In this document: positions 2,921 to 28,844 of the stretch, in pieces
How positions within the stretch are numbered: the first letter of the stretch is position 1
Layout of the letters: each line of letters starts with the position of its first letter
Source: a phage
DNA: 64,000 bases
Direction: 5' to 3' (one strand)
Sequence record: NC_104726.1
Notes under the pieces: model-generated
Seen by the model: the letters and a program-made list of their open reading frames with translations, nothing else
Told to the model about the DNA's origin: nothing
The model's database searches: none
Program-made: the position numbers and the translations under genes

Positions 2921-4105
2921 TTAAGCTTTAGCCAAAATGGCGCTAAACTCTTCACCAAACTCTTTTACAATCTTCATCAGGTTTGGGTATGCTTTGATCA
3001 GCTGAGCAACAATCTTGTCACGCCCTTTGCCGATAAGCAAGGCATTTCCTAAGGCATTAGGTTTCATCATCGCCATAAAGACTGAGAATACAAAATCTCG
3101 GTTCTCGTCCTTGAAGTTTTCCCAAAGGAAATCGAGGAAGTTTGCCACGCAGCTGACAAGATCTTCGTCTGAGATACTTGCATTTTCCATCATATTACGA
3201 ATAGCGATACAACCTTCAGATCCAAGAATCCACAAAATGTCTGGCTGCTTAGGACCTACGTATTCTTTGCAACCACCTGCCATAATCCGACCGATTTCAG
3301 GTAAATTGCGTTTCTTGGTGTGGTATGTCCAGATCTCTACCGCTGCAGTGTGACCAATAGCACCTTGCAGAAGAACACGGGCCATAGCGTCAGAAATAAT
3401 ACCGCTGTCAAAATCGTGCAAGATATCAGATGCAGCAACCCAAGATCGCGGTGTGGCAAAAGATGGACAATTAATCTCAGCCATGGCCTCATAATTATCG
3501 ATAGCTGATGGAACTCTTTTCAGATATCCAATTACAGAGGAGTGCACCCCATTAAGGAATGCGTAGTCCTCAATAAACACCTCTGCATTGCTTGTAACCT
3601 CTACAATGATAAAACGGTTAGCCAGAGGGGCTTCGAGCGCCGAAAGAACCGCACCATCTGTAGAACGGTTACCAGCAGCCACAAAAACAGAACCCTTAGG
3701 GAATGCATAGGTACCGCACTTGTGGTCAAGCATAATTTGCATTGCAACCTTTTGCAGGTAGTTATCTGCATGAGTGAGCTCATCCAGAAAGATAATTCCG
3801 CTCCAGTCAGGATCCGCAGGCCAAAATTCTGGAATTGCAAACACTGTACGTGTAGTTCCATCCGCCTCTACAGGGATAGGTAGCCCAGATAAGTCGGCAG
3901 GATCTTTATCTGACAGTCGCACGTCAACAAGGTTGTCATCTCGCTCACCGAACATATTATCAGCGATCTGCTTCATCACCTGGCTTTTACCCACACCCAT
4001 TGGTCCCAAAATTAGGACAGATCGGCTATGACGTTGGGCAAACTGAATAATAGCTGGCAACTCACGGACAGTGATTTGACCACTTTCGAATACGTTTCTT
4101 GACAT
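2921..4105 (-). CDS. MoxR-like AAA+ ATPase
   Basis: Walker A ILGPMGVGKSQ, Walker B IIFLDEL, sensor-like LEAPLANRFIIV; ATG 4103-4105 with GAGGA upstream. Confidence 0.65.
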   Translation of the reverse strand: MSRNVFESGQITVRELPAIIQFAQRHSRSVLILGPMGVGKSQVMKQIADNMFGERDDNLVDVRLSDKDPADLSGLPIPVEADGTTRTVFAIPEFWPADPDWSGIIFLDELTHADNYLQKVAMQIMLDHKCGTYAFPKGSVFVAAGNRSTDGAVLSALEAPLANRFIIVEVTSNAEVFIEDYAFLNGVHSSVIGYLKRVPSAIDNYEAMAEINCPSFATPRSWVAASDILHDFDSGIISDAMARVLLQGAIGHTAAVEIWTYHTKKRNLPEIGRIMAGGCKEYVGPKQPDILWILGSEGCIAIRNMMENASISDEDLVSCVANFLDFLWENFKDENRDFVFSVFMAMMKPNALGNALLIGKGRDKIVAQLIKAYPNLMKIVKEFGEEFSAILAKA

Positions 4106-4374
4106 TAGTAAAAGTCCTCTACTTGTGTGTAAGTGTTTTCAAAGTTTTCCAAAACAGATATCACATCGGATCTGTCAATATCATACGTGACTCTCCAGTT
4201 GTACGCAACCCTTTCTGCTGTTGCCTCTTCTGGCGCTAGTCGTCTGCTGGCATAAAAGAGTGTTGGAGTACACTTTCTTGCTTGCCCTCTAACTTTCCCA
4301 TAATAATATCTGTGAATATCTTTGTCAAAATTTAACTCTTTTTCTGCACGAAGTTCATATTGCTGGTATAACAT
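4105..4374 (-). CDS. hypothetical protein (89 aa)
   Basis: ATG 4372-4374 with AAGGAG upstream; stop overlaps start of downstream ATPase gene. Confidence 0.45.
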   Translation of the reverse strand: MLYQQYELRAEKELNFDKDIHRYYYGKVRGQARKCTPTLFYASRRLAPEEATAERVAYNWRVTYDIDRSDVISVLENFENTYTQVEDFY

Positions 4375-4418
4375 CTCTACTACTCCTTAAGCAGCATCCT
4401 TGCCGCCATTCCTGCCCA

Positions 4419-4799
4419 CTAAAATGCAGTCCGAATCCAGACAAGGTTCTTATCTGCCCAATCATAGAGGCAAGTCATTGCACTATTGAATTGCTCACAC
4501 GGAGGATAATCTTCTTCCATCTGACGCATAGCAGAGCCTTGTGGGTAAAGCTCCCGTGCTGCAAACCACGCGTCGTAGTCATCAACGGTGTCGAAGTAGT
4601 ATACAACATCCTCCAACTCAGGATCGAACTTTGAACTATCAGGATCCAGTTGTTCAGGGAACTTGGAGCGTAACTTGCCAGCCACAATACTTGCCAACTC
4701 GCTAACATGCTTATTGTCCCACTCCACTAGCTTCCCGTCTTCAGTGATGCGTCCTAACCACTGATCATGAAGGTCAACTGTTGTCTTCCACCGGGCCAT
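4419..4799 (-). CDS. hypothetical protein (126 aa)
   Basis: ATG start, operon context, acidic protein. Confidence 0.45.
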   Translation of the reverse strand: MARWKTTVDLHDQWLGRITEDGKLVEWDNKHVSELASIVAGKLRSKFPEQLDPDSSKFDPELEDVVYYFDTVDDYDAWFAARELYPQGSAMRQMEEDYPPCEQFNSAMTCLYDWADKNLVWIRTAF

Positions 4800-4801
4800 T
4801 A

Positions 4802-5059
4802 TCAGTCCACCTCTTCTTCTCGTTGTAGTTCAAGATACCCGTAGGTCTGGACATCTTCAAGGGTGTGGAACTCCCCATCTGCCGCTAATGCACGAACAAC
4901 TTGGCACAAAACCTTATGAGGAACTTCATCCAGACCAAGATTCAGTGCAGGGAACACCTTATCTAAGTCAACAAAATAAACGAACTGGAGCTCACCAGCT
5001 TCAAAAGGTGTATCTTCAATAAACATCTTCTCGGCATTAGTCAAGATCTGCACTTTCAT
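4802..5059 (-). CDS. hypothetical protein (85 aa)
   Basis: ATG 5057-5059 with GAGGAGG upstream. Confidence 0.45.
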   Translation of the reverse strand: MKVQILTNAEKMFIEDTPFEAGELQFVYFVDLDKVFPALNLGLDEVPHKVLCQVVRALAADGEFHTLEDVQTYGYLELQREEEVD

Positions 5060-5415
5060 TATTCTACCTCCTCTTCTTTTTCTTCGGCATTAGTTTCATG
5101 GCTACCCCACTCTGGAGTTTCCACCTCGATAGTAAACTCACGCACTACACGGTAATTGCCCATGAAGCGCTCCACTTCGTCAAGGCTTATGGAGAAGCCA
5201 TTGGCAACCAGGTCTGCAGCACCCTCTTCTACCAGGTAGTCCAGATTGGCTTCCAGAGCTTCAGGTTCAAACCCTGTCAATGCAATCAGATAACCTTTCC
5301 CTTCATCAGGGAGGACAATACATCCCAACTGATTTTCTTTAAAAAGGCAGTGACCATCATTGTTAATTGGGTGTTCATTGCAGTAAATAGCTGCACGATA
5401 AGTAACTTTAGACAT
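5059..5415 (-). CDS. hypothetical protein (~118 aa)
   Basis: Track start at 5436 is a TTG; the ATG at 5413-5415 has AAGGAG 9 nt upstream and is the likelier start. Confidence 0.45.
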   Translation of the reverse strand: MSKVTYRAAIYCNEHPINNDGHCLFKENQLGCIVLPDEGKGYLIALTGFEPEALEANLDYLVEEGAADLVANGFSISLDEVERFMGNYRVVREFTIEVETPEWGSHETNAEEKEEEVE

Positions 5416-16600: not shown

Positions 16601-19311
16601 GTGAAGATTGCAGGGTTTACTCTCGCCTGACGTGGAGGGTACCCTGTTGATTGGTTAAACCACTGATTACAAGAGTAATCCCTCATATAGTCATAATCAG
16701 AGTATTTGTTTGCATCCTCGTTCCAACACATGTTCAGGTTGGTACCACCCATGCATACAATATATTCTGCGACATACTTATCACTTCTGGTAGGAATACC
16801 TATGAACCATCTGTTAACAGGTTCATCCCAAGCTGTGCGCTCATCTTTAACGCAGATAGCAATCCAGTCATGTGTTCCTGTTTTCTTGCACACATCTCGC
16901 TTCATACCATAGTAGAACTCTTTAGTATTCGGCTCAGGTGCATTTATCAGGTAACTCCATGCCTGATTTGCATAAGTTCCATTGGTGCGTGGATCATGAT
17001 CAAAGGCATACATGATGATCCTTTCCCCACCAAGATGTTCGCCAAGAGTAACTTTGACATTCACATCTCCGTAACCATTGCGAACAACATCCATATTATC
17101 AATAGAGATACCTCTGGGCGTGTAGGCAATTTTCAGCGAATTATCTTCACTAGTGCCGCCAAGTGTAATCCCTATGTTGTTTGTTGTCCCGTCGACATAT
17201 CTTACTGTAGCTTCCCAGCGTATTCCGAAATATCCTGCATCATGGCTGACAATTTTCAGTGTACGAGCTCCCGGGTGAGGTTTTCCAGGATCAGGCCAAG
17301 GGTCTGGGTGTTCGTGAACAGTCAACGACGTTCCGTTCTGCTCATTAACCTGCAACATTTTACCACCCTTGCCATTAGGATTGAACTCCCACAAGGCTTG
17401 TGTTTTCACAATATTGTCATACGTGGCGCGTCTTTGATCGTAGATCTCTTGGGTCACATCATAAGTGACTGATCCAGCATCCATTCTGTGGAGTCTGACC
17501 ATATACGATGTATCCCCTTCTACTGCAGGCTGGGTCCCATTCAGCCCAAAGTATACAGTATCGTTAACATGGAACTGCTTGTTTCTACCAACGGTATGCC
17601 ACTTGCCGTTGGACGGATACGCAGGAACTATAGTGTTCCAGTTCAAAGTCCTTGTCGTATAGGTTCTTCCAGTGCCATGCTTGTCATGGTAGGTGATCTT
17701 GATAGAATACAAACCACGTCTGTTGATGTTACGGTTATACTGGGTGACCACAACTTCGTTAGCACCACCATGGTTCCAGTTAGTGGAGAACTGATAGTTT
17801 GCATCTGTAACAACAGTGCCTGCAGCATTTACCAACTCAATCTTGTCAATAATGAACGTAGCACCCTCCGGCTGAGGTTTCAATTTCATCTTGACAGTAT
17901 CTCCGATGTAAATGTTGCTAACATTGCTCACACCATTGACATCAAAGATGTCTTCGATACCCCAGCTATCTACCGGGACATTTTTATACCAATTCTCCGG
18001 AATCTCTGTGAACCCTTGGCTGTTAAGTCTGCCGCCAAAGAGGTTATTAGATCCTGAAAAACTACCACGTGGTATTCCTGACCACCAAAGCTTTCCATTT
18101 ACCACACAGAATGTGCCTAAGAAACCTTCCCTGTGGATCCCTTGAAAATAAACGCTTTCTGTCCAGCTTACTGGCTCTGTCTGTTCAACAAACTTAGCTG
18201 TTGCCAGCGCTCTGTAATGAATAAAATTGGCCCTAGGACTATTATTAGCAGATTGAGCACCAATATCGTTACACAGGTTTCTGGAGAAACCACGGTACTG
18301 TTTTGTACCATTATTGAAGAAAATTCCACTAGTCCCGTACCCGCGAGCCATAATTACTTCATGGGTATAGGTGATGTTAAGGCTTCTCCACGTGTCGTCA
18401 CCCCAAACATCCTGACCATAAAACACATTAACAAGCTGTTGGTCATCAGGTTTGTGCATCCTTTCTGTGGCTATAATTGCACCATTAGGTCCACACATGA
18501 ACCCTTTCCATGTCTCGCCCACCGGGATGCCTTTAAACTGGTCAAGAGTCACATGCTCGGCTGGATAAACTAGTGTGTTTTTGCTGTTATTTCTTAAGAA
18601 ATCGTAACCTGCAATCCAGAATCCGTTAGGACCACCAAAAATAACCGAGTTGTCATGAACTTCACAATTAATTCTTGGATTTTTCCAAGGACCTGTCTCT
18701 GGACTTTCAGATGTTTCACCGATCTTAACTGGAGTAGCGTGTTGACTTTTGTCAACATGAAGAGAGCCGTAAGTATTATTGCCAGAGCCGTACAGGTGAA
18801 GCATACCATCAGCCTCTGGTGCAGCAATTACCCACACGGTATTGTTTACGCCACCCATTACTTCAACAAGTCTCTCAGGATGGGTGTCCAAATGCAACCC
18901 TGTTACGATCTGTTCCGGCAAAGGTGTCCACTCTCTGACACAAACATCGTTTCCACCTGCTGCCTCCGATCCGATAAGACCAGCTGTGCAACCAATATAG
19001 AAAAATTTATTATCGAATGTGCGGATTACAAATGCACGGTCAGCTCTCCAAACATGGTCTACGTTCCAAGCTGCCTCATTAGGATAGTTTATTGTATCAA
19101 GATCTCCAGTCCGACACTCTCCGAACCTATTATAGCCAGTAATATTAAGCTGACCATCATCAAAAAGTATAGCTAAGCTATTTACATAGGATACTGTGTT
19201 GCTTGTACCATCACTGTTGTCTATTGGGTATGACAGAACAGCAAGTTCCTTAATTCCACCCCTCTTATCGAGGAAATGACGACCAAGTTTTAGCAAAGGG
19301 ATTGGAAGCAT
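13684..19311 (-). CDS. giant virion/tail-associated protein (1875 aa) with Ig-like (Big_2-type) domain
   Basis: Single 5.6-kb ORF at the distal end of the late region; Big_2-like segment IATVDATTGLVTFKATGNVTIKFVV; FN3-like segments. Confidence 0.5.
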   Translation of the reverse strand: MLPIPLLKLGRHFLDKRGGIKELAVLSYPIDNSDGTSNTVSYVNSLAILFDDGQLNITGYNRFGECRTGDLDTINYPNEAAWNVDHVWRADRAFVIRTFDNKFFYIGCTAGLIGSEAAGGNDVCVREWTPLPEQIVTGLHLDTHPERLVEVMGGVNNTVWVIAAPEADGMLHLYGSGNNTYGSLHVDKSQHATPVKIGETSESPETGPWKNPRINCEVHDNSVIFGGPNGFWIAGYDFLRNNSKNTLVYPAEHVTLDQFKGIPVGETWKGFMCGPNGAIIATERMHKPDDQQLVNVFYGQDVWGDDTWRSLNITYTHEVIMARGYGTSGIFFNNGTKQYRGFSRNLCNDIGAQSANNSPRANFIHYRALATAKFVEQTEPVSWTESVYFQGIHREGFLGTFCVVNGKLWWSGIPRGSFSGSNNLFGGRLNSQGFTEIPENWYKNVPVDSWGIEDIFDVNGVSNVSNIYIGDTVKMKLKPQPEGATFIIDKIELVNAAGTVVTDANYQFSTNWNHGGANEVVVTQYNRNINRRGLYSIKITYHDKHGTGRTYTTRTLNWNTIVPAYPSNGKWHTVGRNKQFHVNDTVYFGLNGTQPAVEGDTSYMVRLHRMDAGSVTYDVTQEIYDQRRATYDNIVKTQALWEFNPNGKGGKMLQVNEQNGTSLTVHEHPDPWPDPGKPHPGARTLKIVSHDAGYFGIRWEATVRYVDGTTNNIGITLGGTSEDNSLKIAYTPRGISIDNMDVVRNGYGDVNVKVTLGEHLGGERIIMYAFDHDPRTNGTYANQAWSYLINAPEPNTKEFYYGMKRDVCKKTGTHDWIAICVKDERTAWDEPVNRWFIGIPTRSDKYVAEYIVCMGGTNLNMCWNEDANKYSDYDYMRDYSCNQWFNQSTGYPPRQARVNPAIFTDTQVFLTKQANEVQTFKNKYDPNKWFYNCYGAFFWGPGELPGGGSCLNEATYASDYIMGQVKKYKIIPGPETLGNAVDPYIIMTALRSNMDGTSMSMQIPVTNGYKRVVMIIKCDLIGKQVLAENGTSTHPFEIALHYQFADSPFAEDKRISDTDAQRCKKVLLGAGWWWYEFDLTDKFTDTSKVVTGLRLDLGENMHKAVCDGTYGDPTIYLKYVSFEHPEDVVYGPKLRLFGSWIAKDRVGMGKKVRGFLVDAGTEDMLVNAVWPELPGTQWDNSAKSINWFNIHRAMWTTNCYLWRELNDQAFGFSDGRRMAIICWTTLQRCYDHDYEIGGRAWKNIRDRIITNFADPNGGGAYGFDCSRLIHLNGSSAYKKEGYSGSMIEWGLVKDARVLMGQQLAAAIGPNAVQSVKPAWFDIPLWSSGTPGTAAINPTTGDLEISWEDLKQVGGWDKTGYQVQWWRADGSLAADEFVKDNFYTMSSAKAQELFGQATPSTITMSMCCKDNRTGALGPRVAKVFSGIKWNLPVQSISWKQIGDNKLLVTPACQFNATLNVDPAVAANSAKASDFSVSNTAMADVRKIDTLNARITCKNTYGTFQIINNFTDADSKVVRTASQTLSLGTLAYAALITEQSATLQGGGVGKSIATPVWKPNEWVVFDLTVDFSSDNNWTWVRNCLPQLMGGPSSVSDSHDSTDPSVFQIGKTHPETGETLPDRKYALVCISYGKADVTFSGTHTYNGTYNFSRKYSLKAGNIIDEVGVLYNPGNGIGIVGGKLQMQEPSITPSNVSGIRKTWESSNTNIATVDATTGLVTFKATGNVTIKFVVRDDAGRKTSSTSFTVRQMAPQWFIWEGNPLDGAYPRPAGTSNMRVFTGPVMDNPTTTTNPTFFGAYIPEIIGLPRNQIQLLFGAGVDGLATFGYSDNIDAARSSGWIGFKFQWNPGGRTLGVASIGVMLPGDQQYHLEAYTNFPS

Positions 19312-19330
19312 TGTGTTCTCCAGATAAGAA

Positions 19331-19352
19331 AACCGCCCCGTCAGGAGCGGTT
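19331..19352 (-). terminator. hairpin AACCGC...GCGGTT with T-rich tail on minus strand
   Basis: Located between genes 19360-21105 and 13684-19311. Confidence 0.3.
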
Positions 19353-19359
19353 AGATATA

Positions 19360-21105
19360 TTAACGTTGTGCAATTACTACGTCTACAATATCACCAACAC
19401 CACAATACGTTAATTGCAGCAAGGTAACACTGTTAGCCTTGTTGTTAATAACAGGTGTTGCCGACAGGATAGCATACTTATCGTGCAAAGTCACGTTGTG
19501 ACCTACAGCATCCTGAATGACATAGATAACTGCAGTGAATGGATAAGGTTTATCTTCCGCTGATGTCCCAGGCCACTGTCCTATTGTAAAATCCCCTTTC
19601 GCGTGGACAACATACATGCTGGCCTGCCCGTTAGGTGTCCATGTCCCACTGGACGCGTCAACCTCCTCTAAGTCAAAATCTACCTTTCCTGCGTGGAAAG
19701 TAGGGGCAGTAATGGTTTTACCCGCCTCAATTTCTTGAGAGGTGGTTATCTTACCACTGGAGTTAATGCCATTACAGACAAAGTTGACATTAGAGAAGTC
19801 TGGCAGCCACCCGGTCACTGTGCCGGATATTTCAAGGTTGTGAAGGTGGGTGGTGCCAGTCCCTGCGGCGTTTAAACTAACATCTCCATTTACCTGCAAG
19901 TTTCTGGTAATGTTGCAGTTTTCAGAGTTTGCAGTTGTTGCAGTTAAAGTGGTGGTGGTTAGCTCGGTAATTGTACCTTTATTGGCTGTAAGCCCTTCTC
20001 CTTCAAAAGTTGCACGCTCATTGACTCTTAGAGTATTCAGAGCTATATTTTGGATAGAGGCTGTACCTCGAATAACTACAGACCCGCCAACCTCCAAATC
20101 GCCATTTATCAATGCATCACCCGTGCTTTCAATATAGCTAGGGTAGATCATGGTGCCATCGACAGAGTATGTTATCCCTGTAACGGTACCTGTCACCTCA
20201 AGGTTCTTAACCCTGGTGGTCCCATCGACCTGCAATGTCGGTTCGGTTGCTGCCTTCATGGCATTACCACGAATGTACACGTAGTCAAAAAAGTTATTAC
20301 CCAGACCATCAAAATGCACATCGTTATTATTAGCCACTGGTTTCCCAGAAGTTATAGTGTCAGCTATAACCCTGTGGGTGGACACTTCATGAGGTTGCAG
20401 CTCTGTACTTCTCCAGTCTGCATGCTTAGGATCGCTCCACGCAAAAGTAAGTGTAGAAGTATTTGCCGTGAGGATTAGATTCCTAAAGCGTGCAGTAGAA
20501 TCTGCCCCATTAACAGGTCCATGTAAGGTAAGGGTGCCACCAACTATAGTGTTAGCGAGTTCTGTAAGACCTTTTACCACCAAAGACCCTACAGTAACTT
20601 TCATCCCCTCCATGGCTTTAAATATGCTATCAACATAGTCAACAACAAACTCTGTGTTTGCTATGGACTCTGACTTATCGTCCATTGGAGGTGTAGGTAC
20701 TCGTGGGTCACCTTCGAACCTCGGGCTGTTAAGTTTTGCGTAGTATTTTGCCATTACTGCAGAGTCGGTATATAATCTCCAGTTTGGAGATTGTGAAGGA
20801 TCTGCTGGCATTCTAACCGGGTTAGATTTTGATGCTGCGGGAGCGTACCACCACTGAGGGCCTGTGTCCCCTTTAAACTCGTACAGCTGGTTAAAAACTG
20901 TTGTGGATGCACCATACGCCCAAGGGATCGGTGGCGTTTTAAAATAAAGGTTGTCAAGCATGGCTTTTCGTACCGTAGGGATGGTGGTCCCATCCTCTAC
21001 GACAACTTCATCCACAGCGTTACCGTTGACAACCAAGTGCAAACGTTCAGAATCAACAATTACTTGATCTACCGCCTGCTCAAAGCTTGTCATGTCTTGC
21101 GCCAT
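19360..21105 (-). CDS. tail fibre / tailspike-like protein (581 aa)
   Basis: Position in the fibre cluster; Gly/Thr/Asn-rich beta-type sequence; assignment by context. Confidence 0.4.
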   Translation of the reverse strand: MAQDMTSFEQAVDQVIVDSERLHLVVNGNAVDEVVVEDGTTIPTVRKAMLDNLYFKTPPIPWAYGASTTVFNQLYEFKGDTGPQWWYAPAASKSNPVRMPADPSQSPNWRLYTDSAVMAKYYAKLNSPRFEGDPRVPTPPMDDKSESIANTEFVVDYVDSIFKAMEGMKVTVGSLVVKGLTELANTIVGGTLTLHGPVNGADSTARFRNLILTANTSTLTFAWSDPKHADWRSTELQPHEVSTHRVIADTITSGKPVANNNDVHFDGLGNNFFDYVYIRGNAMKAATEPTLQVDGTTRVKNLEVTGTVTGITYSVDGTMIYPSYIESTGDALINGDLEVGGSVVIRGTASIQNIALNTLRVNERATFEGEGLTANKGTITELTTTTLTATTANSENCNITRNLQVNGDVSLNAAGTGTTHLHNLEISGTVTGWLPDFSNVNFVCNGINSSGKITTSQEIEAGKTITAPTFHAGKVDFDLEEVDASSGTWTPNGQASMYVVHAKGDFTIGQWPGTSAEDKPYPFTAVIYVIQDAVGHNVTLHDKYAILSATPVINNKANSVTLLQLTYCGVGDIVDVVIAQR

Positions 21106-21114
21106 GATTTCTCC

Positions 21115-21381
21115 TTAAGCTTTTTGCTCTTCGTTTTTAACGTGGTCAGGGTGCTGGCAACCCCACCGGAGCGAGATGAATTTGCTAATAAGCTGGGGGC
21201 AAGCTACTGAAGGCGCGTATATCCACGCATACCATTCAGGAAGCGTATCATTATACCCCATATGAATAAACACCCCAGTCATCACCGCCATGCCTATGTT
21301 CGACCATAGCTTAGTTTGGGACACTTTCGTAGGGTCATCAGATGCCGCAACCAGTCCCCATAAAAACTGAGTTAGTTTCAT
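21115..21381 (-). CDS. small membrane protein, candidate holin (88 aa)
   Basis: Two predicted hydrophobic helices and a charged C-terminus (HPDHVKNEEQKA); ATG 21379-21381 with AGAGGG upstream. Confidence 0.3.
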   Translation of the reverse strand: MKLTQFLWGLVAASDDPTKVSQTKLWSNIGMAVMTGVFIHMGYNDTLPEWYAWIYAPSVACPQLISKFISLRWGCQHPDHVKNEEQKA

Positions 21382-21392
21382 TTACCCTCTTT

Positions 21393-22436
21393 TTAAGCAT
21401 AAGATATAGTGATCCATTGACCATTTACAAGTTTTTGGATAGCACCTGTCCAGTAATCACCTTGATAAGGGTGTTTATAAGCGTAGTTACCAGAGCACAT
21501 CACATGTCCAGGGTAGACTCTTGACTCTCTGTAGGTGGTTTTGAAACGGTTTGCTATCCTTACATCATCAACCCCTCTGCTGGGCATAGGGATAGTAAGG
21601 TTACCACTACTGTCTGCGCCGTTACCATTTACCCTGCGGACCACGTTTCTTCCACCAACTGTTGCATATTGACCCCTGACTGTTTCATCGTTACAATCAA
21701 CTCTTCCACCTATTTGAGCGCTTCCGCAGGATTGTTGTCCGTTAACAGTGGCTCTTGGTATCGTGACCGCATTGGCATTTGCAGAGGAACTTTTTGCATC
21801 GTTGCATTCAAGATTTCCTTGGATGGCCAGTCTTGCACGGTTGGCAGTTATAGCATTGAGCTTCATAGCCGAAAACACAGGCTGCCCACCAGAAGGTTGA
21901 AATCTCCAACGGAACCCGTCTATTTGGTGAGAAGGATCATCAAGGTCTGTGCCGTCAGCACCACCGATGTTGTCCATAATCCAGAAATCCATCGTCGTCT
22001 TGTCTGGAGTTATGGTGGTATATATTGCCGCATTGTCTGTTGACGCAGATGCAAACTCGATTCTTTGAAGACCTAAAGTTTGAGTCTGAGTCATTATGTC
22101 TCCAGACTTGTCAACATACAGATCGTCCATTTCTTCAGGCGAGTATACATTGAGAACTTGACGTGCAGCAGCTTTGTCTGGAACGTCTGCTAGATTATTA
22201 GTGACCCTTAAGAATCTATTATCCCATCCTGGGACAACATCTTCTGTTAGATGCTTTAACCACGCAGAAAGCATGTGAAGTTCAAAGTTAACAACTTCAC
22301 ATGCCACTCTTTGTGTCATATCCCAACCTTTCAATCTCTCTTCTTTTTTTGGTTGAGACTTATTCAACTCTCCCGTATTTTCAAGCACAACATCCTGATT
22401 GGCCCAAATATCAAGAGGGATAACTGGTTTAGTCAT
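21393..22436 (-). CDS. tail fibre protein, paralog A (347 aa)
   Basis: Homologous N- and C-termini with gene 23451-24491; C-terminal IQKLVNGQWIT resembles the C-terminus of P2 H-type fibres. Confidence 0.6.
   Translation of the reverse strand: MTKPVIPLDIWANQDVVLENTGELNKSQPKKEERLKGWDMTQRVACEVVNFELHMLSAWLKHLTEDVVPGWDNRFLRVTNNLADVPDKAAARQVLNVYSPEEMDDLYVDKSGDIMTQTQTLGLQRIEFASASTDNAAIYTTITPDKTTMDFWIMDNIGGADGTDLDDPSHQIDGFRWRFQPSGGQPVFSAMKLNAITANRARLAIQGNLECNDAKSSSANANAVTIPRATVNGQQSCGSAQIGGRVDCNDETVRGQYATVGGRNVVRRVNGNGADSSGNLTIPMPSRGVDDVRIANRFKTTYRESRVYPGHVMCSGNYAYKHPYQGDYWTGAIQKLVNGQWITISYA
21408..21437. repeat. 30-nt exact repeat copy 1 (3' end of fibre gene A)
   Basis: AGTGATCCATTGACCATTTACAAGTTTTTG, identical to 23466-23495. 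Confidence 0.8.
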
Positions 22437-22525
22437 CGCGTTCTCCTGAGAAAATTCCTTAGGACTATTTTAACACTTTAGAGAACAAAATGCAAGAACG
22501 GAGTCCTTTCCGTTCTGACCTTTGT

Positions 22526-22840
22526 TTACCTTTTACTATGCTCTACGAGCATGTGCAAAATCTTTTGTACATCAGCTCGGATACCGGAGACATCTGTCCT
22601 GACATCCTGCTTAAGGTCGTTAATATCGGCCTCTAGCTTGCTTAACCGGGTCTCGATAACGGAATCAAGTTTATCTTTTGTAACCATACTGTTTTTCACT
22701 AAGATGAGGTCTTTCTCCAGTTCATCCAACCTCTTGGAAATGCCTTTCCATTTGGTGTGCCACTGGTTGAAAGCCCATACACAGATCGGGACAACGGTAC
22801 CCATGCAGATACCGTACAATGCCGCCAAATCCAACTCCAC
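22526..22840 (-). CDS. membrane-anchored coiled-coil protein (104 aa)
   Basis: GTG start with AGGAGG upstream; N-terminal hydrophobic helix then charged heptad-like region. Confidence 0.35.
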   Translation of the reverse strand: MELDLAALYGICMGTVVPICVWAFNQWHTKWKGISKRLDELEKDLILVKNSMVTKDKLDSVIETRLSKLEADINDLKQDVRTDVSGIRADVQKILHMLVEHSKR

Positions 22841-22851
22841 AACACCTCCTC

Positions 22852-23436
22852 TTAGAGGGTAGGTCGCTCCGGGAAGAAAATGTCAGGGGCTTTAGATGTA
22901 TCTATTTCAAGAAGTTTTACCCTGTACATTTTCAAATCTCTGATGTTACGTTTCTGGTCATCAGTAAGATCATATTCAAGGTCAATCATGTCTTGATAGG
23001 CACCAATTCTAGCAGTAGCCCAAGCAAGTTCTGTCTCTATGACACCCTCTGCCTGTTGAACAAAGAATTCATTATCTGTGACAAATTCATCACCAACTAA
23101 ACGCAAAGCGTCGTGGTGAAGCATAATGTTTTCTGGTACCTCTTCTTTTTTGGCGATAACCACACGAAGACCTGGAGCAGGCCATAAGGCATCAGGTTCT
23201 TCTGTAGATGTCTTAAGAATTCCCTTCTCGTCAACAAGTAGGAAGATACAACCCGGATTTTCTTGTCGTAATGTTCGTGACTGCACATACCAATCGCCAT
23301 CATCATTACGTAAAAAATACCCAGTGTATGCGGTGTAATCCTCAACCTCTTGAGGGGTCAGCTCCTTGGTTTCCTTGTTGGAGTGGTATTCGCCAGATCC
23401 CGGTTGGTAAAGTTTAAACTCTTGAAGTATTTTCAT
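22852..23436 (-). CDS. tfa: tail fibre assembly chaperone (lambda Tfa / P2 G-like)
   Basis: C-terminus KMYRVKLLEIDTSKAPDIFFPERP closely matches the lambda Tfa C-terminal motif; sits immediately downstream of a fibre gene. Confidence 0.7.
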   Translation of the reverse strand: MKILQEFKLYQPGSGEYHSNKETKELTPQEVEDYTAYTGYFLRNDDGDWYVQSRTLRQENPGCIFLLVDEKGILKTSTEEPDALWPAPGLRVVIAKKEEVPENIMLHHDALRLVGDEFVTDNEFFVQQAEGVIETELAWATARIGAYQDMIDLEYDLTDDQKRNIRDLKMYRVKLLEIDTSKAPDIFFPERPTL

Positions 23437-23450
23437 GCTAGTCCTCCGAT

Positions 23451-24491
23451 CTATGCATAATTAACAGTGATCCATTGACCATTTACAAGTTTTTGTAAAG
23501 GTCCTGCCCAGTAGGTTGAACCACGCATCTCTTTTTTGTCACCGAAATGCCAGCCTGTGACAACGTAGCCGTTGCGGATTGGAGATTCAGAAACTCCGTC
23601 AACAAGTCTTGCACCGATTCTGATGTCTTGCACACCTGTCTGCGGGATAGTGATTGTTACATCACCGTTACCGTTAGCCGTCACTCCATTCACAGAGCGC
23701 ACCACATTTCTGTTACCGACAACACAGTGCTGACTTCTTACAACCATACTGTCACAACTTGCACCGCCATTAACATACACTGACCCAGTCGTCAACTGAC
23801 TAGCCACATTACAGTTGGTGAATGTTGCTGTATTGCTGATAGTAAGGTTATTGCACCTCATGTTATCGACAACTTCAACATTGCCTACCACTTTCAACAG
23901 CGCACGGTTAGCCGTGATCGCGTTAAGGTACATCAAAGTGAACTCTGGATTAATATCCGGCTGAGTTGGCTGGAATCTCCAACGAAACGCATCTACCGTA
24001 GATGTACCACCATCATCAAACGACCCAGTATTATCACTTAACCCAAAGTCGAGAGTTGTCTTATCTGGGCCAATAGTTGTCTCTATCCAAGCCTTATCTG
24101 TCTCGGCAGCTTTAAAGTTGATACGCTGCAAACCCAATGGGCCTGTCATTGTATCACCTGTAACTTTTACATACCTGGCGTCTGCCTCTTCCTTAGTAAT
24201 AATCCCAAGGTTTCTACGGGCAACAGGAATGTTCAAAAGATCACTCAAGTTATTATCACGTACCAGATAACGGCCTTCTTGAGCGGGGATCTGCTCGTCA
24301 GCGATGTATTTTGCCCAAGTCCCGAGCATATTGAAAATATAGTTAAGTTCTTCACATGAGGGCTTTTGACCAAGATCCCAACCTTTTCTCCACAAATCAT
24401 CAATCGGGCGTAGCCTGTTCTGTCTGTGGGTGTTAGGCAGAACCTGATCCTCCTCTGCCCAAATCTCTAATGGAAAACTAGGTTTTGACAT
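23451..24491 (-). CDS. tail fibre protein, paralog B (346 aa)
   Basis: N-terminus PLEIWAEEDQVLPNT and C-terminus QKLVNGQWITVNYA parallel paralog A; central region divergent. Confidence 0.6.
   Translation of the reverse strand: MSKPSFPLEIWAEEDQVLPNTHRQNRLRPIDDLWRKGWDLGQKPSCEELNYIFNMLGTWAKYIADEQIPAQEGRYLVRDNNLSDLLNIPVARRNLGIITKEEADARYVKVTGDTMTGPLGLQRINFKAAETDKAWIETTIGPDKTTLDFGLSDNTGSFDDGGTSTVDAFRWRFQPTQPDINPEFTLMYLNAITANRALLKVVGNVEVVDNMRCNNLTISNTATFTNCNVASQLTTGSVYVNGGASCDSMVVRSQHCVVGNRNVVRSVNGVTANGNGDVTITIPQTGVQDIRIGARLVDGVSESPIRNGYVVTGWHFGDKKEMRGSTYWAGPLQKLVNGQWITVNYA
23466..23495. repeat. 30-nt exact repeat copy 2 (3' end of fibre gene B)
   Basis: Identical to 21408-21437. Confidence 0.8.
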
Positions 24492-24503
24492 TTTATCTCC
24501 TGA

Positions 24504-26576
24504 TTATGAGAAGTCTGGCGGGACAACATCTTCTACATACCCTTTCAGAGCAACCTGCCCCATATGAAGCACGGTAGAATCTCTAGCGGTAACAGTGATG
24601 CTGTCAGACATTACTTGCGGGTATGCCCACACATACTGTTTTACCTCAGGGTATCTATACTCTATAGTTGCCATGTTTCCGCAAATACATCTCCATAAAA
24701 ATTCTTGGTAATTCCTGGTTGGGTCGTAACCATATACCGGAGCAAGCTCTTTACTAGGAACGAACCCTGCAAGGTATTGTATTTCAGACGGTTGCCAACC
24801 TAACTTAACGATAGGTATGTTTACAGACTCTTTTGCCTTTTCAATACCTCCCTGCATCACCCAATCGTAGCACTCAGTGCAGAAGAAATCAAGAGCACCT
24901 GCTTCTTTTTTATATTGGTCAGCAAGGTTCAGCTTTTGCGTAAGCTCGGTTTCCATAATGGTTGGGAAAAACAGCAGAGCTGTCATCTGAGCTGATGCAG
25001 CGTGTGCCTTTATTGCCTTTGAAATAGCCGCAATACGAGCGCCAAGCTTACCACGACAAAATGCTACATACTTGTCGTAAACACCGCCAGTTTTAGGATC
25101 GTCAATAGTCCCAATATCTAATGCATACTCACCTGTCTCATCATAAAACGCCTGTTTTGTAGGGTAATCATAAATACAAGGTCTACGAGTATCGGTATTG
25201 AACCACCACCACGGTTCACCAACCTGCATAATCACTGGCAGGTTGTTTCTCATAGCGGCTGATGCAAAATTCTTAAATACTGCAGTAAGGAAATTCATGC
25301 CCTCTTCAATGGTTGGAGACAGGAGGTAGCTACAAGGTGTATACCCTGTTTTAGCGTAGTTATCGTTCCAGTCTCTTTGGGTCCATTCCAACGGGCAGGC
25401 ATCGCTGTAAAGCTCAAAACTTACAGACTGCATAACGTCGAAGTTATGTCGTTTGGCATTGTACATAAAATCATCATGCCATTTATAAGCTGCAGCGTTT
25501 AGCGCCCCTGTTCTGTTTATAGACCATTGGGTTCCTGACCATGTGTAGTCATAATAATGACTCATACCAACATAGTGGTTTATGGTTCCGGTATAGCCCA
25601 GACGCTTGATATTGTTCAACACTCTTAAAGGAGATACGTTCCACATATCGTCATATGCGGTGCAGATCCCGACGTCGTGCTCTTTAACCTGAATATTGTT
25701 AAGTTGCATCATTTTCCAGCCCGTGTCTGGCTGAAGCAGATCTAGGCGCAACTCACACTCTACATTTTCCGTTCTCGGGTCTGTGCTATTACTTACCCAG
25801 TCTTTAGGCATAAGCGGTATTAAAATCCTTCTCACCTGCCGAGGATCAACACCCATCATGTTGTTGTTCTGATCCATCCCGACGCAGTCCTCGAAATCAA
25901 TATGAATCTCTGCAACATTCTTATCCTCTGAGATGCTGACAGCATATTGAGCTAAAGGAACATAGATGATTGTGCCATCAACAAGGTCTACAGTCATAAT
26001 CATCTTTTCAGGAGTGGAGAAGTTGCTGGCATTGGTTATTGACATTCTGAACCAAAGCTTGGTGTTTCTCATCTCATAGTGATCATCAAACCCAATACCG
26101 AAATGGTCATACTTGTCAACTGTTTCCCAAATGCACCCAGCCATACCTCCATATGTTCTTGACACTAAACGGTTAATACAACAGTTGTCGTCTGCAACAA
26201 TACAGGTACTTTCAGTCTGCTGAGTGGTTGTAACCCAATACCTTGGGTGAAACATTCTCTCCTCAACAGTATCCCAAGATATCCTGTCAAGATTCTCATC
26301 TGAAACTATTGTACATTTCGCCCTTTGTGTTCCAATCATCACCCCTTGAGATTTTGATGAAAACTCCATAAAGAAGCTTCTTGGCAACCTGTTGGGTAAT
26401 TTGTCAACAATTTCTACGGGGATCTCAATACTGGTTGCCCCAATTGGGATAGTTACATCGCCCTCAACATGATTATAATCCCTACCAGGAACGGCAGTAT
26501 CCTGAACTGTTCGGTAGTGAAACTGTGCAGCCATTGTAGAGTAATCACGGTAAGGTTTAAAAACAGCTGTTGCCAT
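24504..26576 (-). CDS. tail fibre / baseplate-attached protein (690 aa)
   Basis: Follows the J-like and I-like baseplate genes in P2-like order; N-terminal Calx-beta-like segment. Confidence 0.4.
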   Translation of the reverse strand: MATAVFKPYRDYSTMAAQFHYRTVQDTAVPGRDYNHVEGDVTIPIGATSIEIPVEIVDKLPNRLPRSFFMEFSSKSQGVMIGTQRAKCTIVSDENLDRISWDTVEERMFHPRYWVTTTQQTESTCIVADDNCCINRLVSRTYGGMAGCIWETVDKYDHFGIGFDDHYEMRNTKLWFRMSITNASNFSTPEKMIMTVDLVDGTIIYVPLAQYAVSISEDKNVAEIHIDFEDCVGMDQNNNMMGVDPRQVRRILIPLMPKDWVSNSTDPRTENVECELRLDLLQPDTGWKMMQLNNIQVKEHDVGICTAYDDMWNVSPLRVLNNIKRLGYTGTINHYVGMSHYYDYTWSGTQWSINRTGALNAAAYKWHDDFMYNAKRHNFDVMQSVSFELYSDACPLEWTQRDWNDNYAKTGYTPCSYLLSPTIEEGMNFLTAVFKNFASAAMRNNLPVIMQVGEPWWWFNTDTRRPCIYDYPTKQAFYDETGEYALDIGTIDDPKTGGVYDKYVAFCRGKLGARIAAISKAIKAHAASAQMTALLFFPTIMETELTQKLNLADQYKKEAGALDFFCTECYDWVMQGGIEKAKESVNIPIVKLGWQPSEIQYLAGFVPSKELAPVYGYDPTRNYQEFLWRCICGNMATIEYRYPEVKQYVWAYPQVMSDSITVTARDSTVLHMGQVALKGYVEDVVPPDFS

Positions 26577-27262
26577 TAACCCTCCTGTCTAGTTGCGTTT
26601 ACTGTAATACTTTCACAATAAATGGTTGTGGTGTCCCAATCAGGTCTTACGTCAGGAACATATAGCAAAGTAGCCAGCCCACCAACTCCGAATTGGTTTT
26701 CTTCCCACACTGATCCGAAGCCAAGAGCTGTAGAGTCCCCTTCAAAACCAAAAGCTTGCCCTTGCGATTCTGTAAGACGCAAATGACAAGGCAATGGTAG
26801 CATATCTAAGATCTGATCGATAGACTGCAATATGTCAAAGCAAGTTTTTCTAATATTTATGTCAAACCTGAAGTTGTCTCCTTTCCACGTATCGAAATTG
26901 TCTCTTCCGAACAATTGTCGCAAGGTGGAGATGACATCTTCGCGAGTCCCGCCCCTTGATGCTGCGGCCTGCTGAATAATTAGTGTGGCACGAAAATCAG
27001 CATCTGAAAGTCCATTCCTAAGAATACCAAGTTGATTACCAACTTCGTCAAGGTATCTTCCGCTGGCATTGTTAAGCAATCTTCCTTCAGCCAAACCTAC
27101 CAGCATCTTATCAACATCCTCCAACCTTTTAAGGTATACGGTTAAGAATGTGACTAAATTAACCTTCTCAGCCAGAAAATCTCCAGGCAGGTAGTCAAGA
27201 CCTCCCTGAACAAAATCTGGCAGAGTGTGGATGTGGTTAACATCCGACTTAATCTCTGCCAT
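26576..27262 (-). CDS. baseplate/tail protein I-like (XkdU/DUF2313-like)
   Basis: Motif RYLDEVGNQLGILRNGLSDADFR and position immediately after the baseplate J-like gene. Confidence 0.5.
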   Translation of the reverse strand: MAEIKSDVNHIHTLPDFVQGGLDYLPGDFLAEKVNLVTFLTVYLKRLEDVDKMLVGLAEGRLLNNASGRYLDEVGNQLGILRNGLSDADFRATLIIQQAAASRGGTREDVISTLRQLFGRDNFDTWKGDNFRFDINIRKTCFDILQSIDQILDMLPLPCHLRLTESQGQAFGFEGDSTALGFGSVWEENQFGVGGLATLLYVPDVRPDWDTTTIYCESITVNATRQEG

Positions 27263-27273
27263 ATCTCGCCGCC

Positions 27274-28764
27274 TTAAATAGTTTGTTGGAAAGTTATATT
27301 ACTTTCGTCGAGGTCAAACACCTCGGTCATGTTCGCAACAATATCGTTTGTAGTGTAAGCTTCATCAGAAGCTCCTACGGATTTAACTTGAATTACCAGT
27401 CTATTAAATCTGCCTATTGACACAGCAGCGGATGCAGCACCGACCAATTGGATATTGTATAACGTATCTGCAACATCCAGTCCGTTAACAACCTGCAAAA
27501 GAGCCTCTATAATGGCATCTTTTTCGGTTGTAGAAAGCGCAGCACCGGAGTAGGTAATTCTTACATCTAGGCGGTAGGTGTTTGCCTTGGAGTAATAAAT
27601 TCTTTCAGTTTGACCGTCAGATGTAGTGACATCGTAGAAAATATTACCATAAGTCCTGTTCGTACAGGCTATAGTTTGGTAAAGTGCTTGGCAAATGTCC
27701 TCCGTTGCACCACCAAACACAACCACTTGGAACTTGTAAGGAGGTATACCTTTAGCATCAGTTTTATCGGTGTTGTTGGAGAACACCCTCACTTTCTCAA
27801 CACCTTTCACCTCGCTTACAGCGCTAAGGATTGCAGGACGGGTAGCCTTAGATGTTAACTGTTTTGTGCTGGAAGCTCTTAAGCGATACTCTGAGTCTTT
27901 CTCAACATCCCTGCCCTCATTGAATCTTTCTCGGTTGGTAAGCTTGATAAATCCACTGGGAGTAGGTGACATTGTTGTCACGGTTTCTGCCTCTCTTGAC
28001 AGCTCACCAGCCTCGTTAGCGATAACATCCAGGGTGATAGTTCTTTCCCCTACAATCGGGGATACTCTGAAATCTACTCTACTATTAAGTCCAACTTGAT
28101 CAAGATTCGAATTGTACCCTATCCACAACGTTCCTGTCAACATATCGACCTGAATCAAATCGTCGTTCAACAGGGTTGTATTATCGACAATGAATTGCTT
28201 AATCTCTCCGTAAAAGCTTGGCAAATCAGAAGAGTCCAGAGACTTATCTGTTAAAACCAGACTTTTTGTTTTGATACTTCCATCTGTCTGGTTGGTAATT
28301 TGAAAGTTGTATTTACCAATCCTTAGGTCTGGAGCATTTATTCTGTGAGCAATAAGATTCCCTGCTACTTGCACATCGTTGCTAAGAACAAAGTTGCCAC
28401 TGTCCAGCGTATAAGTTTTGGAATCATAAATCATATTGTACGGCACAGTTGTGTTGATTGTCAACTGGCAGGTACCTGATGATTTAGAACGGCCTCTTCG
28501 GTAAATACCCTGTCTTCCAAGAAGCTCATCCAGGTAAATACCTTCTGCCCCATACAGCGTCTGTGATGCGTATACAGATGCTGCCATAAGAATAAGTTGA
28601 TACTCTCGCTCGTTGAAGATAGTGGTCAGCTTATCTGCAACGGAGTTACTCTGTACGTTGAAGTTTTCGCCAAAAGCACGGATCAGGCTTTGCTTAGTTT
28701 CAACGATTAGGTCATTTAGGGTTGGTATAACGAAACCAGCCTCTGTCAATCCATACTTAGCCAC
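27274..28764 (-). CDS. baseplate J-like protein (P2 J / Mu gp47 / T4 gp6 family)
   Basis: N-terminal signature incl. AEGIYLDELLGRQGIYRRG; GTG start with GGAGGAG upstream. Confidence 0.65.
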   Translation of the reverse strand: MAKYGLTEAGFVIPTLNDLIVETKQSLIRAFGENFNVQSNSVADKLTTIFNEREYQLILMAASVYASQTLYGAEGIYLDELLGRQGIYRRGRSKSSGTCQLTINTTVPYNMIYDSKTYTLDSGNFVLSNDVQVAGNLIAHRINAPDLRIGKYNFQITNQTDGSIKTKSLVLTDKSLDSSDLPSFYGEIKQFIVDNTTLLNDDLIQVDMLTGTLWIGYNSNLDQVGLNSRVDFRVSPIVGERTITLDVIANEAGELSREAETVTTMSPTPSGFIKLTNRERFNEGRDVEKDSEYRLRASSTKQLTSKATRPAILSAVSEVKGVEKVRVFSNNTDKTDAKGIPPYKFQVVVFGGATEDICQALYQTIACTNRTYGNIFYDVTTSDGQTERIYYSKANTYRLDVRITYSGAALSTTEKDAIIEALLQVVNGLDVADTLYNIQLVGAASAAVSIGRFNRLVIQVKSVGASDEAYTTNDIVANMTEVFDLDESNITFQQTI

Positions 28765-28844
28765 GTCACTCCTCCGGTATGAAAATCTCTACAAGGTATT
28801 TTACCAAATTTTGTAACAATAGTCAATCTGAGCATAAAAATAAA

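Follow-up and report, generated by a model that had tools for sequence, protein, structure and literature searches.

Two tail-fibre genes lie close together in a 64,000-nt stretch of phage DNA (NC_104726.1, referred to as the window), and a run of 30 nucleotides near their 3' ends is the same in both. What produced this identity, and how old is the gene pair that carries it? An earlier note on this DNA read the block as consistent with recent duplication or a recombination hotspot.

Organization of the fibre locus

The window derives from an rV5-like Vequintavirus. Its nucleotide sequence is 98.8% identical to rV5 across positions 19000–27000 and 100% identical to MG065635 over the fibre locus. 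NC_011041 and MZ501093 have the same gene order and gene sizes at 98.8–99.3% nucleotide identity. The order gp34, fibre B, Tfa, 104-aa protein, fibre A, 88-aa protein, gp28, which characterizes the Vequintavirus short tail fibre pair, was found in the window. Both fibre ORFs called in the earlier note were confirmed on the minus strand with unchanged coordinates and with 347 and 346 aa. The locus consists of the following features.

26576–27262, minus strand: baseplate wedge 1 protein (rV5 gp35), by its match to phiTE wedge 1
23451–24491, minus strand: short tail fibre B (rV5 gp33 orthologue, 346 aa), ORF, PHROG 4465, E 1e-171
22852–23436, minus strand: tail fibre assembly chaperone (rV5 gp32, 194 aa), Pfam Caudo_TAP, PHROG 136
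22526–22840, minus strand: conserved 104-aa protein (rV5 gp31), PHROG 5345, E 1e-48
22437–22525, minus strand: spacer preceding fibre A, with a terminator-like hairpin and then a late-promoter-like motif
21393–22436, minus strand: short tail fibre A (rV5 gp30 orthologue, 347 aa), ORF, PHROG 4465, E 4e-166
21115–21381, minus strand: 88-aa membrane protein (rV5 gp29) after fibre A, PHROG 1322, E 1e-32

Fibre B is 99–100% identical to gp33 of rV5-like phages, and the PHROG 4465 profile spans both fibres from end to end (residues 1–347 of gp30 and 1–346 of gp33). The gp30/gp33 pair and gp32 at this locus are already described genes of rV5-like phages. The two fibres were published as paralogues with 42.3% identity, and gp30, gp32, and gp33 are present in the rV5 virion proteome (PMC3606486). 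Two short tail fibre paralogues with a chaperone, homologous to Mu GpS and GpU, have also been published (PMC8594841). Neither paper mentions the identical block, how old the duplication is, or any conversion between the copies, and full-text literature searches found no such statement. A scan of IMG/VR with gp33 returned close relatives only. In each of the relatives compared (Av-05, TH18, GAP31, and L020–L028), gp31 comes after the Tfa gene, and its sequence points to a hydrophobic N-terminal part and, beyond it, a charged helical region. No Pfam match was obtained for gp29.

Domain structure of the two fibres

BLASTP aligned the two fibres over their full length with 43% identity and 58% positives (E 3e-94). 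This result upholds the proposed paralogy and shows that the similarity is not confined to the 30-nt block. The accompanying picture of ends that are conserved and a centre that differs is an oversimplification. Residues 1–30 are 50% identical (30-aa windows), but the 70% peak lies in the middle of the protein at residues 121–150. The lowest values are at residues 61–90 (27%), 211–255 (23%), and 301–330 (27%), and strong likeness at the C-terminal end is limited to the last 20 residues (15/20).

The assignment of the N-terminus as the attachment domain was borne out. The baseplate-docking N-terminus in the model of the phiTE short tail fibre (STF; PDB 9cuy) is matched by both fibres, gp33 through residues 1–108 (E 1.4e-19) and gp30 through residues 1–83 (E 1.3e-9). 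The C-terminal 58 residues of gp33 (286–343) match residues 440–501 of Mu GpS (5yvq_A; E 1.7e-6). In the PDB search gp30 alone fell below threshold against Mu GpS, and a family profile that includes gp30 matched it. The profile from 30 homologues matched the phiTE STF at E 2e-34 and Mu GpS at E 1.9e-13, and the Mu GpS match takes in the terminal strand VYIRPVQKNINGTWYNV. The AlphaFold2 monomer of gp33 was poor (mean pLDDT 63) and was used for one Foldseek search only, in which 5yvq_A (Mu GpS) was the top and sole significant match (E 1.7e-7, low TM-score). Homology to the receptor-binding domain of T4 gp12 has been reported by HHpred (PMC3606486); no T4 gp12 chain was among the PDB matches by phmmer, profile, or Foldseek. 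The gp35 protein matches phiTE wedge 1 (PDB 9mjn) at E 6e-67, the protein to which the STF N-terminus attaches in phiTE (PMC11972413). By this analogy, gp35 is the likely docking partner of the fibre N-termini. We view gp30 and gp33 as probable Mu GpS-like trimeric fibres; their N-terminal domain would plug into the baseplate wedge, and the C-terminal tip of each probably binds the LPS core. Purifying selection acts on both copies, with dN/dS against FV3 of 0.059 for gp30 and 0.020 for gp33. Fibre A (gp30) is the faster-evolving copy.

Age of the duplication

The exact 30-nt repeat and the equal gene length are what a recent duplication of the fibre gene, suggested in the earlier note, would have in its favor, but the 43% amino acid identity between the copies and the saturation of their synonymous sites contradict it. 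At the 143 identical residues other than Met and Trp, 52 codons are the same compared to 53.9 expected if codon usage alone is at work, and pS is 0.85. The occurrence of orthologous A and B clades in distant lineages is a further argument against recent duplication. In the neighbour-joining tree of residues 1–285, the A clade and the B clade each have 100% bootstrap. These clades include distant metagenomic relatives that have the two-fibre layout; in the orthologues of these lineages, too, synonymous sites have reached saturation. The same tree splits A plus B from the single-copy fibres with 97% support, a grouping that older conversions could inflate; the neighbour-joining trees in this work used 276 and 59 columns. 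These data show that the duplication is old, and we give its recent origin next to no credence. A single duplication, dating back to an ancestor that Vequintavirus shares with some uncultured relatives, would have given rise to gp30 and gp33, and the copies would then have diverged to their present 43% identity.

The 30-nt block

The block occupies these positions.

21408–21437, minus strand: 30-nt block in fibre A, codons QKLVNGQWIT, exact match
23466–23495, minus strand: 30-nt block in fibre B, codons QKLVNGQWIT, exact match

The identity is exact as first reported, but the block does not form the final 30 coding nucleotides. It corresponds to codons −14 to −5 because 12 coding nucleotides and the stop codon lie after it. 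The identity extends 0 nt to either side. Simulations in which both proteins and their alignment were fixed and each codon was redrawn from the window codon usage gave a longest exact run of 11.8 nt on average, with a 99th percentile of 21 nt; runs of at least 30 nt arose in 1e-4 of 20,000 simulations. Codon usage gives a probability of 1.3e-4 that ten codons are identical. These data show that the block is non-random and more than chance.

The block encodes the most conserved C-terminal strand of the fibre family, and a conserved ten-residue motif combined with a common codon preference could in principle yield identical DNA without copying. The motif Q-K/Y-x-V/I-N-G-x-W-x-T is indeed kept family-wide, including in Mu GpS and the phiTE STF, and Av-05 uses several of the codons of the window block. 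Both the simulated run lengths and the codon-usage probability oppose this explanation, as do the recurrence of the identity in L020 with other codons and the other long exact tracts in L024 and L028. We judge chance to be very improbable.

A function of the 30 nt at the DNA or RNA level, either as a promoter or leader for the next gene or as a recombinase site, was considered since the start codon of the next gene lies 27–56 nt downstream of each block. Against such a function, synonymous third positions vary among relatives (CTT/CTG, GTA/GTC, AAT/AAC, CAA/CAG, and ACT/ACC/ACG), and the L023 and L024 copies differ at six block codons with the peptide unchanged. The promoter and terminator scan called none at the block on the gene strand, and the late-promoter-like motif is located elsewhere. 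These data indicate no nucleotide-level function for the block, and this explanation is as improbable as chance.

Mu swaps its S/S' tips by inversion. Repeats that serve a programmed switch of the fibre tip, either an inversion of the Mu G-segment type or a diversity-generating retroelement, therefore had to be weighed because the fibres are homologous to Mu GpS; the profile search also matched PDB 8ju3 (S/S' chimera). The block repeats are direct and 2058 nt apart, and the locus is not flanked by any matching long inverted repeat, which argues against inversion. Recombination from block to block would delete the chaperone gene, and both copies are complete genes whose products are found in virions (PMC3606486), which argues against switching of either kind. 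Mismatches near the block are not adenine-specific, and both repeats lie inside complete paralogous genes, which speaks against a retroelement. A programmed switch has a negligible probability.

Probable gene conversion between the copies

Codons were compared one by one in 10 Vequintavirus genomes and 6 metagenomic relatives. Megablast counts of places in a record were unusable as a gauge of block identity within genomes. The comparison also covered a second, internal motif.

21895–21922, minus strand: FRWRFQP patch in fibre A, 28 nt, 82% identity to its fibre B partner
23968–23995, minus strand: FRWRFQP patch partner in fibre B, paired with 21895–21922

Both copies of L020 and L022 read CAA AAA CTG GTC AAT GGT CAG TGG ATC AC, which differs from the window block by three synonymous changes. 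Synonymous sites are saturated between the window and L020 orthologues (pS 0.80–0.83); thus, the identity within each genome must have been renewed after the lineages split. Both ECP2309 copies read AAC at the codon that is AAT in both window copies. The FRWRFQP patch in L020 is a 20-nt exact run, and its Arg codon is AGA in both copies compared to CGT in both window copies.

Other relatives carry other tracts. The two copies have a 110-nt exact tract in common in L024 (P<2e-4), a different 30-nt exact run in L028 (P 0.002), and a 29-nt exact run in L020 (P 8e-4); the run-length P is 0.004 for FV3 and 0.06 for L023. The comparison of the window with L024 gave 52 orthology sites and 3 concerted sites over alignment nt 1–300, and 1 orthology site and 12 concerted sites over nt 901–1000. 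In the tip tree the A and B fibres of L023, L024, and P0005 cluster with 99% support, which conflicts with the tree of residues 1–285. The locus thus has an over-long tract, substitutions common to both copies, and conflicting trees for tract and flank, the three signs by which gene conversion was recognized. The hotspot of the earlier note is roughly right in this form: the 3' 170 nt holds different conversion patches in different lineages.

The block is already broken in several Vequintavirus genomes (runs of 14–23 nt in FV3, YP-6, NHEP1, JES2013, YN3, and B9-1), and conversion is therefore occasional rather than continuous. In L023 and L024 the terminal block residues are identical between the copies and the nucleotides are not. 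Thus, selection alone maintains the motif, and function does not depend on the patch.

We consider it highly probable that three elements together explain the locus: the known gp30/gp33 genes, one old duplication, and recurrent conversion patches that include the 30-nt block. Homologous recombination between the copies would repeatedly overwrite short 3' stretches and one internal motif. The block would be one such patch, on the most conserved strand of the fibre family, and the remaining identity may seed recombination. The converted sequence may have come from the copy in the same genome or from a co-infecting relative; both sources fit, and either fibre gene may have been the donor.

Position and origin of the second copy

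The spacer before fibre A contains a terminator-like hairpin at 22516–22495 followed by the late-promoter-like sequence TGTTAAAATA at 22475–22466. The hairpin and the promoter motif are kept in FV3, L020, L023, L024, and L028, and the stem sequences vary between lineages and still fold. The second copy would have come to sit two genes downstream, behind its own terminator and late promoter, where it fills the slot of a 157-aa membrane protein gene in single-fibre relatives. A tblastn search of the window for a remnant of that gene gave nothing convincing (best E 0.09, elsewhere in the window).

This separate slot would also suit a second fibre acquired from another phage, with the 3' sequence common to both fibres marking the capture junction. 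The greater divergence of gp30 points the same way (40–43% identity to the single-copy fibres of sister genera versus 47–52% for gp33), and tip-plus-chaperone cassettes do move between relatives (Av-05 versus TH18). However, the split of A plus B from all single-copy fibres has its 97% support on the 285 unconverted residues, a search of 5.8 billion proteins turned up no outside sequence closer to gp30, and every match above 43% identity comes from the same two-fibre layout. A single old junction also cannot account for lineage-specific patches or for synonymous changes common to both copies. Acquisition from another phage is unlikely, although it is the least improbable of the alternatives to duplication followed by conversion.

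A single chaperone gene and its proposed role for both fibres

The gp32 protein matches Pfam Caudo_TAP with 45.7 bits (cut-off 22.1; E 9e-12) and PHROG 136 at E 2e-36. The earlier note correctly stated that only fibre B is followed by a Tfa-type chaperone. A Caudo_TAP gene lies immediately 3' of gp33 and not of gp30, which is followed by the gene for the 88-aa membrane protein. A phmmer search of the ORFs in the 64-kb window found no second Tfa homologue, and in the PDB phmmer gave no match of gp32 to TfaMu. In every two-fibre lineage examined, the locus carries a single Tfa gene.

The variable N-domain of the Mu Tfa attaches to the distal part of the fibre and remains on the virion (as summarized in PMC9608196). 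The extreme C-termini of the fibres are ISYA/VNYA in the window and L020 and VQTL/IQTL in L023 and L024. Identity in the N-part of Tfa is 74% between the window and L020 and 41% between the window and L023. This covariation of fibre C-termini and Tfa spans three lineages only. From gene content and covariation we infer that a single gp32 acts in the folding of both fibres and does so by attaching to their C-terminal ends, which resemble each other. Conversions at the C-terminal end would then be harmless or even favored because gp32 would bind both ends.

A more tentative proposal, which we hold as possible though doubtful, goes further. Selection would favor 3'-end conversion because gp32 must recognize both fibres, the shared strand would be a gp32-docking module kept in step, and the copying would also overwrite receptor-contacting loops. 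The lineage of L023, L024, and L028 is where such overwriting of loops would be seen. If true, the phage would have a built-in means to equalize or re-diverge the specificities of two fibre sets competing for six common sites on the baseplate.

Discussion

Phages of the rV5 type rank among the E. coli phages most often isolated and are therapy candidates. Both of their short fibre genes have been kept since an old duplication; most of the differences lie in the tip loops, and short patches at the 3' end pass from one copy to the other. Such knowledge has a bearing on engineering, namely which fibre segments can be swapped without loss of chaperone compatibility. It is also a caution that short exact repeats in fibre genes need not mean recent events. 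Recurrent conversion is a small addition to a fibre pair and chaperone that were already established, and these findings open no new kind of biology. The published paralogue identity of rV5 gp30 and gp33 (Kropinski et al. 2013; Maffei et al. 2021, with gp32) matches the value found here.

The N-terminal baseplate-docking domain is homologous to that of phiTE gp236 (PDB 9CUY; E 1.4e-19 for the better match) and of phi92 fibre III, gp147, and the phiTE and phi92 wedge proteins are homologous to gp35 and gp36 here. The phiTE and phi92 fibres point down, and their proposed role is firm binding to the outer membrane (PMC11972413; PMC13450770). Those phages have a single such fibre, with six trimers per baseplate, whereas the rV5-like phages have two paralogues that apparently use the same site.

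The shaft and the C-terminal tip, including the last strand, are homologous to Mu GpS in its complex with GpU/TfaMu (PDB 5YVQ), and the Caudo_TAP chaperone gene directly 3' of gp33 is a further likeness to the Mu GpS/GpU pair. The docking domain is of the phiTE type and not of the Mu type. Mu combines one constant part with two invertible tips that have a chaperone each, whereas the locus described here has two complete fibre genes in direct orientation and one chaperone.

Mosaic tail-fibre genes and the concerted evolution of paralogues by gene conversion are general phenomena. As in those cases, short near-identical tracts lie inside diverged fibre genes, and the trees of tract and flank conflict. 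Unlike mosaic fibres in general, the exchange here is between two copies and is concentrated on the C-terminal 170 nt beside a single chaperone gene.

The fibre locus

Positions 19000-27000 of the window are 98.8% identical to Escherichia phage rV5 and 99.5% identical to FFH2 by megablast, positions 21100-24520 are 100% identical to GenBank MG065635, and the gene order matches the records of annotated relatives. Both fibre reading frames have exactly the coordinates assigned in the earlier note.

Features of the fibre locus, in transcription order
24504-26576, minus: gp34-like protein, first in the locus
23451-24491, minus: fibre B, 346-aa ORF, rV5 gp33 in annotated records
22852-23436, minus: 194-aa tail fibre assembly protein gp32, from annotated records and Pfam Caudo_TAP
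22526-22840, minus: 104-aa protein, ORF
22437-22525, minus: 89-nt spacer preceding fibre A
22516-22495, minus: terminator-like hairpin in the spacer
22475-22466, minus: motif TGTTAAAATA after the hairpin, resembling the rV5 late-promoter motif
21393-22436, minus: fibre A, 347-aa ORF, rV5 gp30 in annotated records
21115-21381, minus: 88-aa small membrane protein, the gene after fibre A
19360-21105, minus: 581-aa fibre protein, last in the locus

The fibre pair is already known. In rV5, the tail-fibre-like proteins gp30 and gp33 are similar in size and share 42.3% identity, the virion proteome contains gp30, gp32, and gp33, and recognition of two LPS chemotypes was suggested as possible (Kropinski et al. 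2013, PMC3606486). Maffei et al. described homology to Mu GpS/GpU, saw little variation among alleles, and assigned the terminal receptor to the LPS core (PMC8594841).

In the gene upstream of fibre B, a Calx-beta domain is joined to two domains (N-terminal and TIM-barrel) of the N4-type non-contractile tail sheath protein, which the literature ties to ECA/NGR glycan recognition. The small 104-aa and 88-aa proteins are conserved inside the fibre operon of every relative examined; the 88-aa protein matches a membrane-protein family, and the 104-aa protein has a hydrophobic N terminus. The homologue of the latter (gp31) in FV3, YP-6, B9-1, and NHEP1 (1726-2004 of loci L013-L016) is annotated as 279 nt versus 315 nt, which may reflect another start call or a true truncation. 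MG065635 and 15 other MG0656xx records are titled 'Campylobacter phage' with C. jejuni as host, and their identity to E. coli rV5-like phages, the window among them, is 98-100%; the host label on these 16 records looks doubtful.

Likeness between the two fibres

Fibres A and B are paralogues, as the earlier note proposed. The proteins align end to end with 43% identity (E 3e-94), and the similarity extends beyond the block, a 30-nt exact repeat near the 3' ends of both genes. The proposed pattern of conserved ends and a differing centre is partly right: 15 of the last 20 residues agree, but similarity also lies away from the ends and peaks at residues 121-150, the best 30-residue window (70% identity). 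The weakest stretches are 61-90, 211-255, and 301-330 (23-27%), with the greatest difference at residues ~300-330. Purifying selection acts on both, with dN/dS versus FV3 at 0.059 (A) and 0.020 (B).

In each copy, the first ~100 residues match the N terminus modelled for the phage phiTE short tail fibre in its wedge-bound state (PDB 9cuy). A profile from 30 homologues matches the phiTE fibre (E 2e-34) and the phage Mu tail fibre GpS (E 2e-13), the latter match including the last strand. Mu GpS is also the sole significant Foldseek match of the monomer model, which is a poor model. Both fibres of the locus are complete, conserved, and carried in the virion; their docking domains are homologous, and their tips are of the Mu type.

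Age and origin of the pair

Fibres A and B use the same codon at 52 of 143 identical non-Met/Trp residues, where random draws from the window codon usage give 53.9, and the proportion of synonymous differences is 0.85. The duplication is therefore old, and the suggestion that it was recent is wrong.

Sister genera (Av-05, TH18, GAP31, and a Salmonella relative) and metagenomic lineages L025-L027 have one fibre only. The single-fibre loci consist of the fibre, then Tfa (the assembly chaperone), a 104-107-aa protein, and one or two small membrane proteins. Single-fibre relatives carry a gene for a 157-aa multi-pass membrane protein (5449-5922 of L008, the Av-05 locus, and also in L010 and L011) whose slot is held by fibre A in rV5-like phages; no homologue of this gene was found in the window. 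The two-fibre layout is common to six metagenomic or assembly contigs. The copies of L020-L022 are 78% (A) and 87-88% (B) identical to those of the window, and the copies of L023, L024, and L028 are about 49% (A) and 73% (B) identical. A tree of residues 1-285 separates an A clade (100%) from a B clade (100%), and A plus B split from all single-copy fibres with 97% support. This topology points to a single duplication that predated the separation of the two-fibre lineages.

The fibres of Av-05 and TH18 (3501-4571 and 3501-4595) are 89% identical overall with unrelated C-terminal tips, that of TH18 resembling the phiTE tip. Their chaperones (4581-5126 and 4613-5197) share only about 35% identity. 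The pair cleanly illustrates a tip-plus-chaperone cassette swap.

Probable conversion between the copies

The identity of 21408-21437 with 23466-23495 is exactly 30 nt with no further extension; the block does not end the genes, as had been stated, since twelve coding nucleotides and the stop codon follow it. It encodes QKLVNGQWIT. For the two given protein sequences, the probability of ten identical codons is 1.3e-4, and any 30-nt exact run arose in 1e-4 of simulations. Constraint on the nucleotides themselves was considered and is ruled out: the block is broken to 14-23 nt within Vequintavirus (FV3, YP-6, B9-1, NHEP1, JES2013, and YN3, with one Leu-to-Phe change), and the two copies of L023 and of L024 differ at six codons with no change of peptide.

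Other lineages carry patches of their own. In L020 and L022 both copies read CAA AAA CTG GTC AAT GGT CAG TGG ATC AC at the block site, three synonymous differences from the window. Synonymous sites between window and L020 orthologues are saturated (pS 0.80-0.83), which would have erased a single ancient event, so the A/B identity was renewed after these lineages split. At the FRWRFQP motif the L020 copies share a 20-nt run, and the Arg codon is AGA in both L020 copies versus CGT in both window copies. In ECP2309 an AAC codon stands in both copies, versus AAT in both window copies. Exact tracts of 110 nt across the tip loops in L024 and 30 nt across GYWAAPLQKL in L028 were found, along with runs of 23, 19, and 14 nt in L023. 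Between window and L024, sites supporting concerted change versus orthology number 12 to 1 at alignment nt 901-1000 and 3 to 52 at nt 1-300. In the tip tree, A and B of the L023 lineage join at 99%, within the B type, and site patterns and trees agree on conversion.

Given the excess over chance, the lineage-specific patches, and the lack of nucleotide-level constraint, the block is best read as a conversion patch, short and fairly recent, on the most conserved strand of the fibre family. The phrase 'recombination hotspot' in the earlier note came close, with different A/B conversion patches in separate lineages. Recurrent short-patch conversion is an ordinary process; no mention of it between gp30 and gp33 copies was found in the literature searched.

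Transcription, chaperone, and docking

The hairpin and motif of the spacer are kept in FV3, L020, L023, L024, and L028; in the metagenomic relatives the stems vary in sequence and still fold. These conserved elements belong to fibre A itself, and with them the two fibre genes appear to occupy neighbouring late transcription units. TKKTAAAATA occurs seven times in the window versus 1.0 expected from shuffling (22466, 28797, 34068, 48230, 51753, and 60467, minus; 20937, plus). Six of the seven matches are on the gene strand, and 28797-28806 is directly upstream of the wedge gene starting at 28764. These sites probably correspond to the late promoters that have been reported for rV5.

Only fibre B is followed by a Tfa-type chaperone, as previously noted: gp32 scores above the Pfam Caudo_TAP threshold, and a small membrane protein follows fibre A. 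No second Caudo_TAP-type protein was found in the window, and the locus has a single chaperone gene. We infer that gp32 serves both fibres from the gene content of every two-fibre lineage, from the extreme fibre C termini (ISYA/VNYA versus VQTL/IQTL), which covary by lineage with the Tfa sequence, and from the precedent of Mu, whose Tfa binds the distal fibre through its variable N-domain (PMC9608196). Two tips would broaden LPS-core recognition.

Phage phi92 has a single homologous fibre, gp147 ('fibre III'), present as six trimers and proposed to mediate irreversible binding (PMC13450770). The text of that paper gives the wedge as one gp145 and two gp146, and PDB 21vq has two chains of a 495-aa 'gp145' and one of a 209-aa 'gp146'; one of these two sources may have exchanged the gene names. 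Relatives of the rV5-like phages have six docking sites, which in rV5-like phages two fibres would share.
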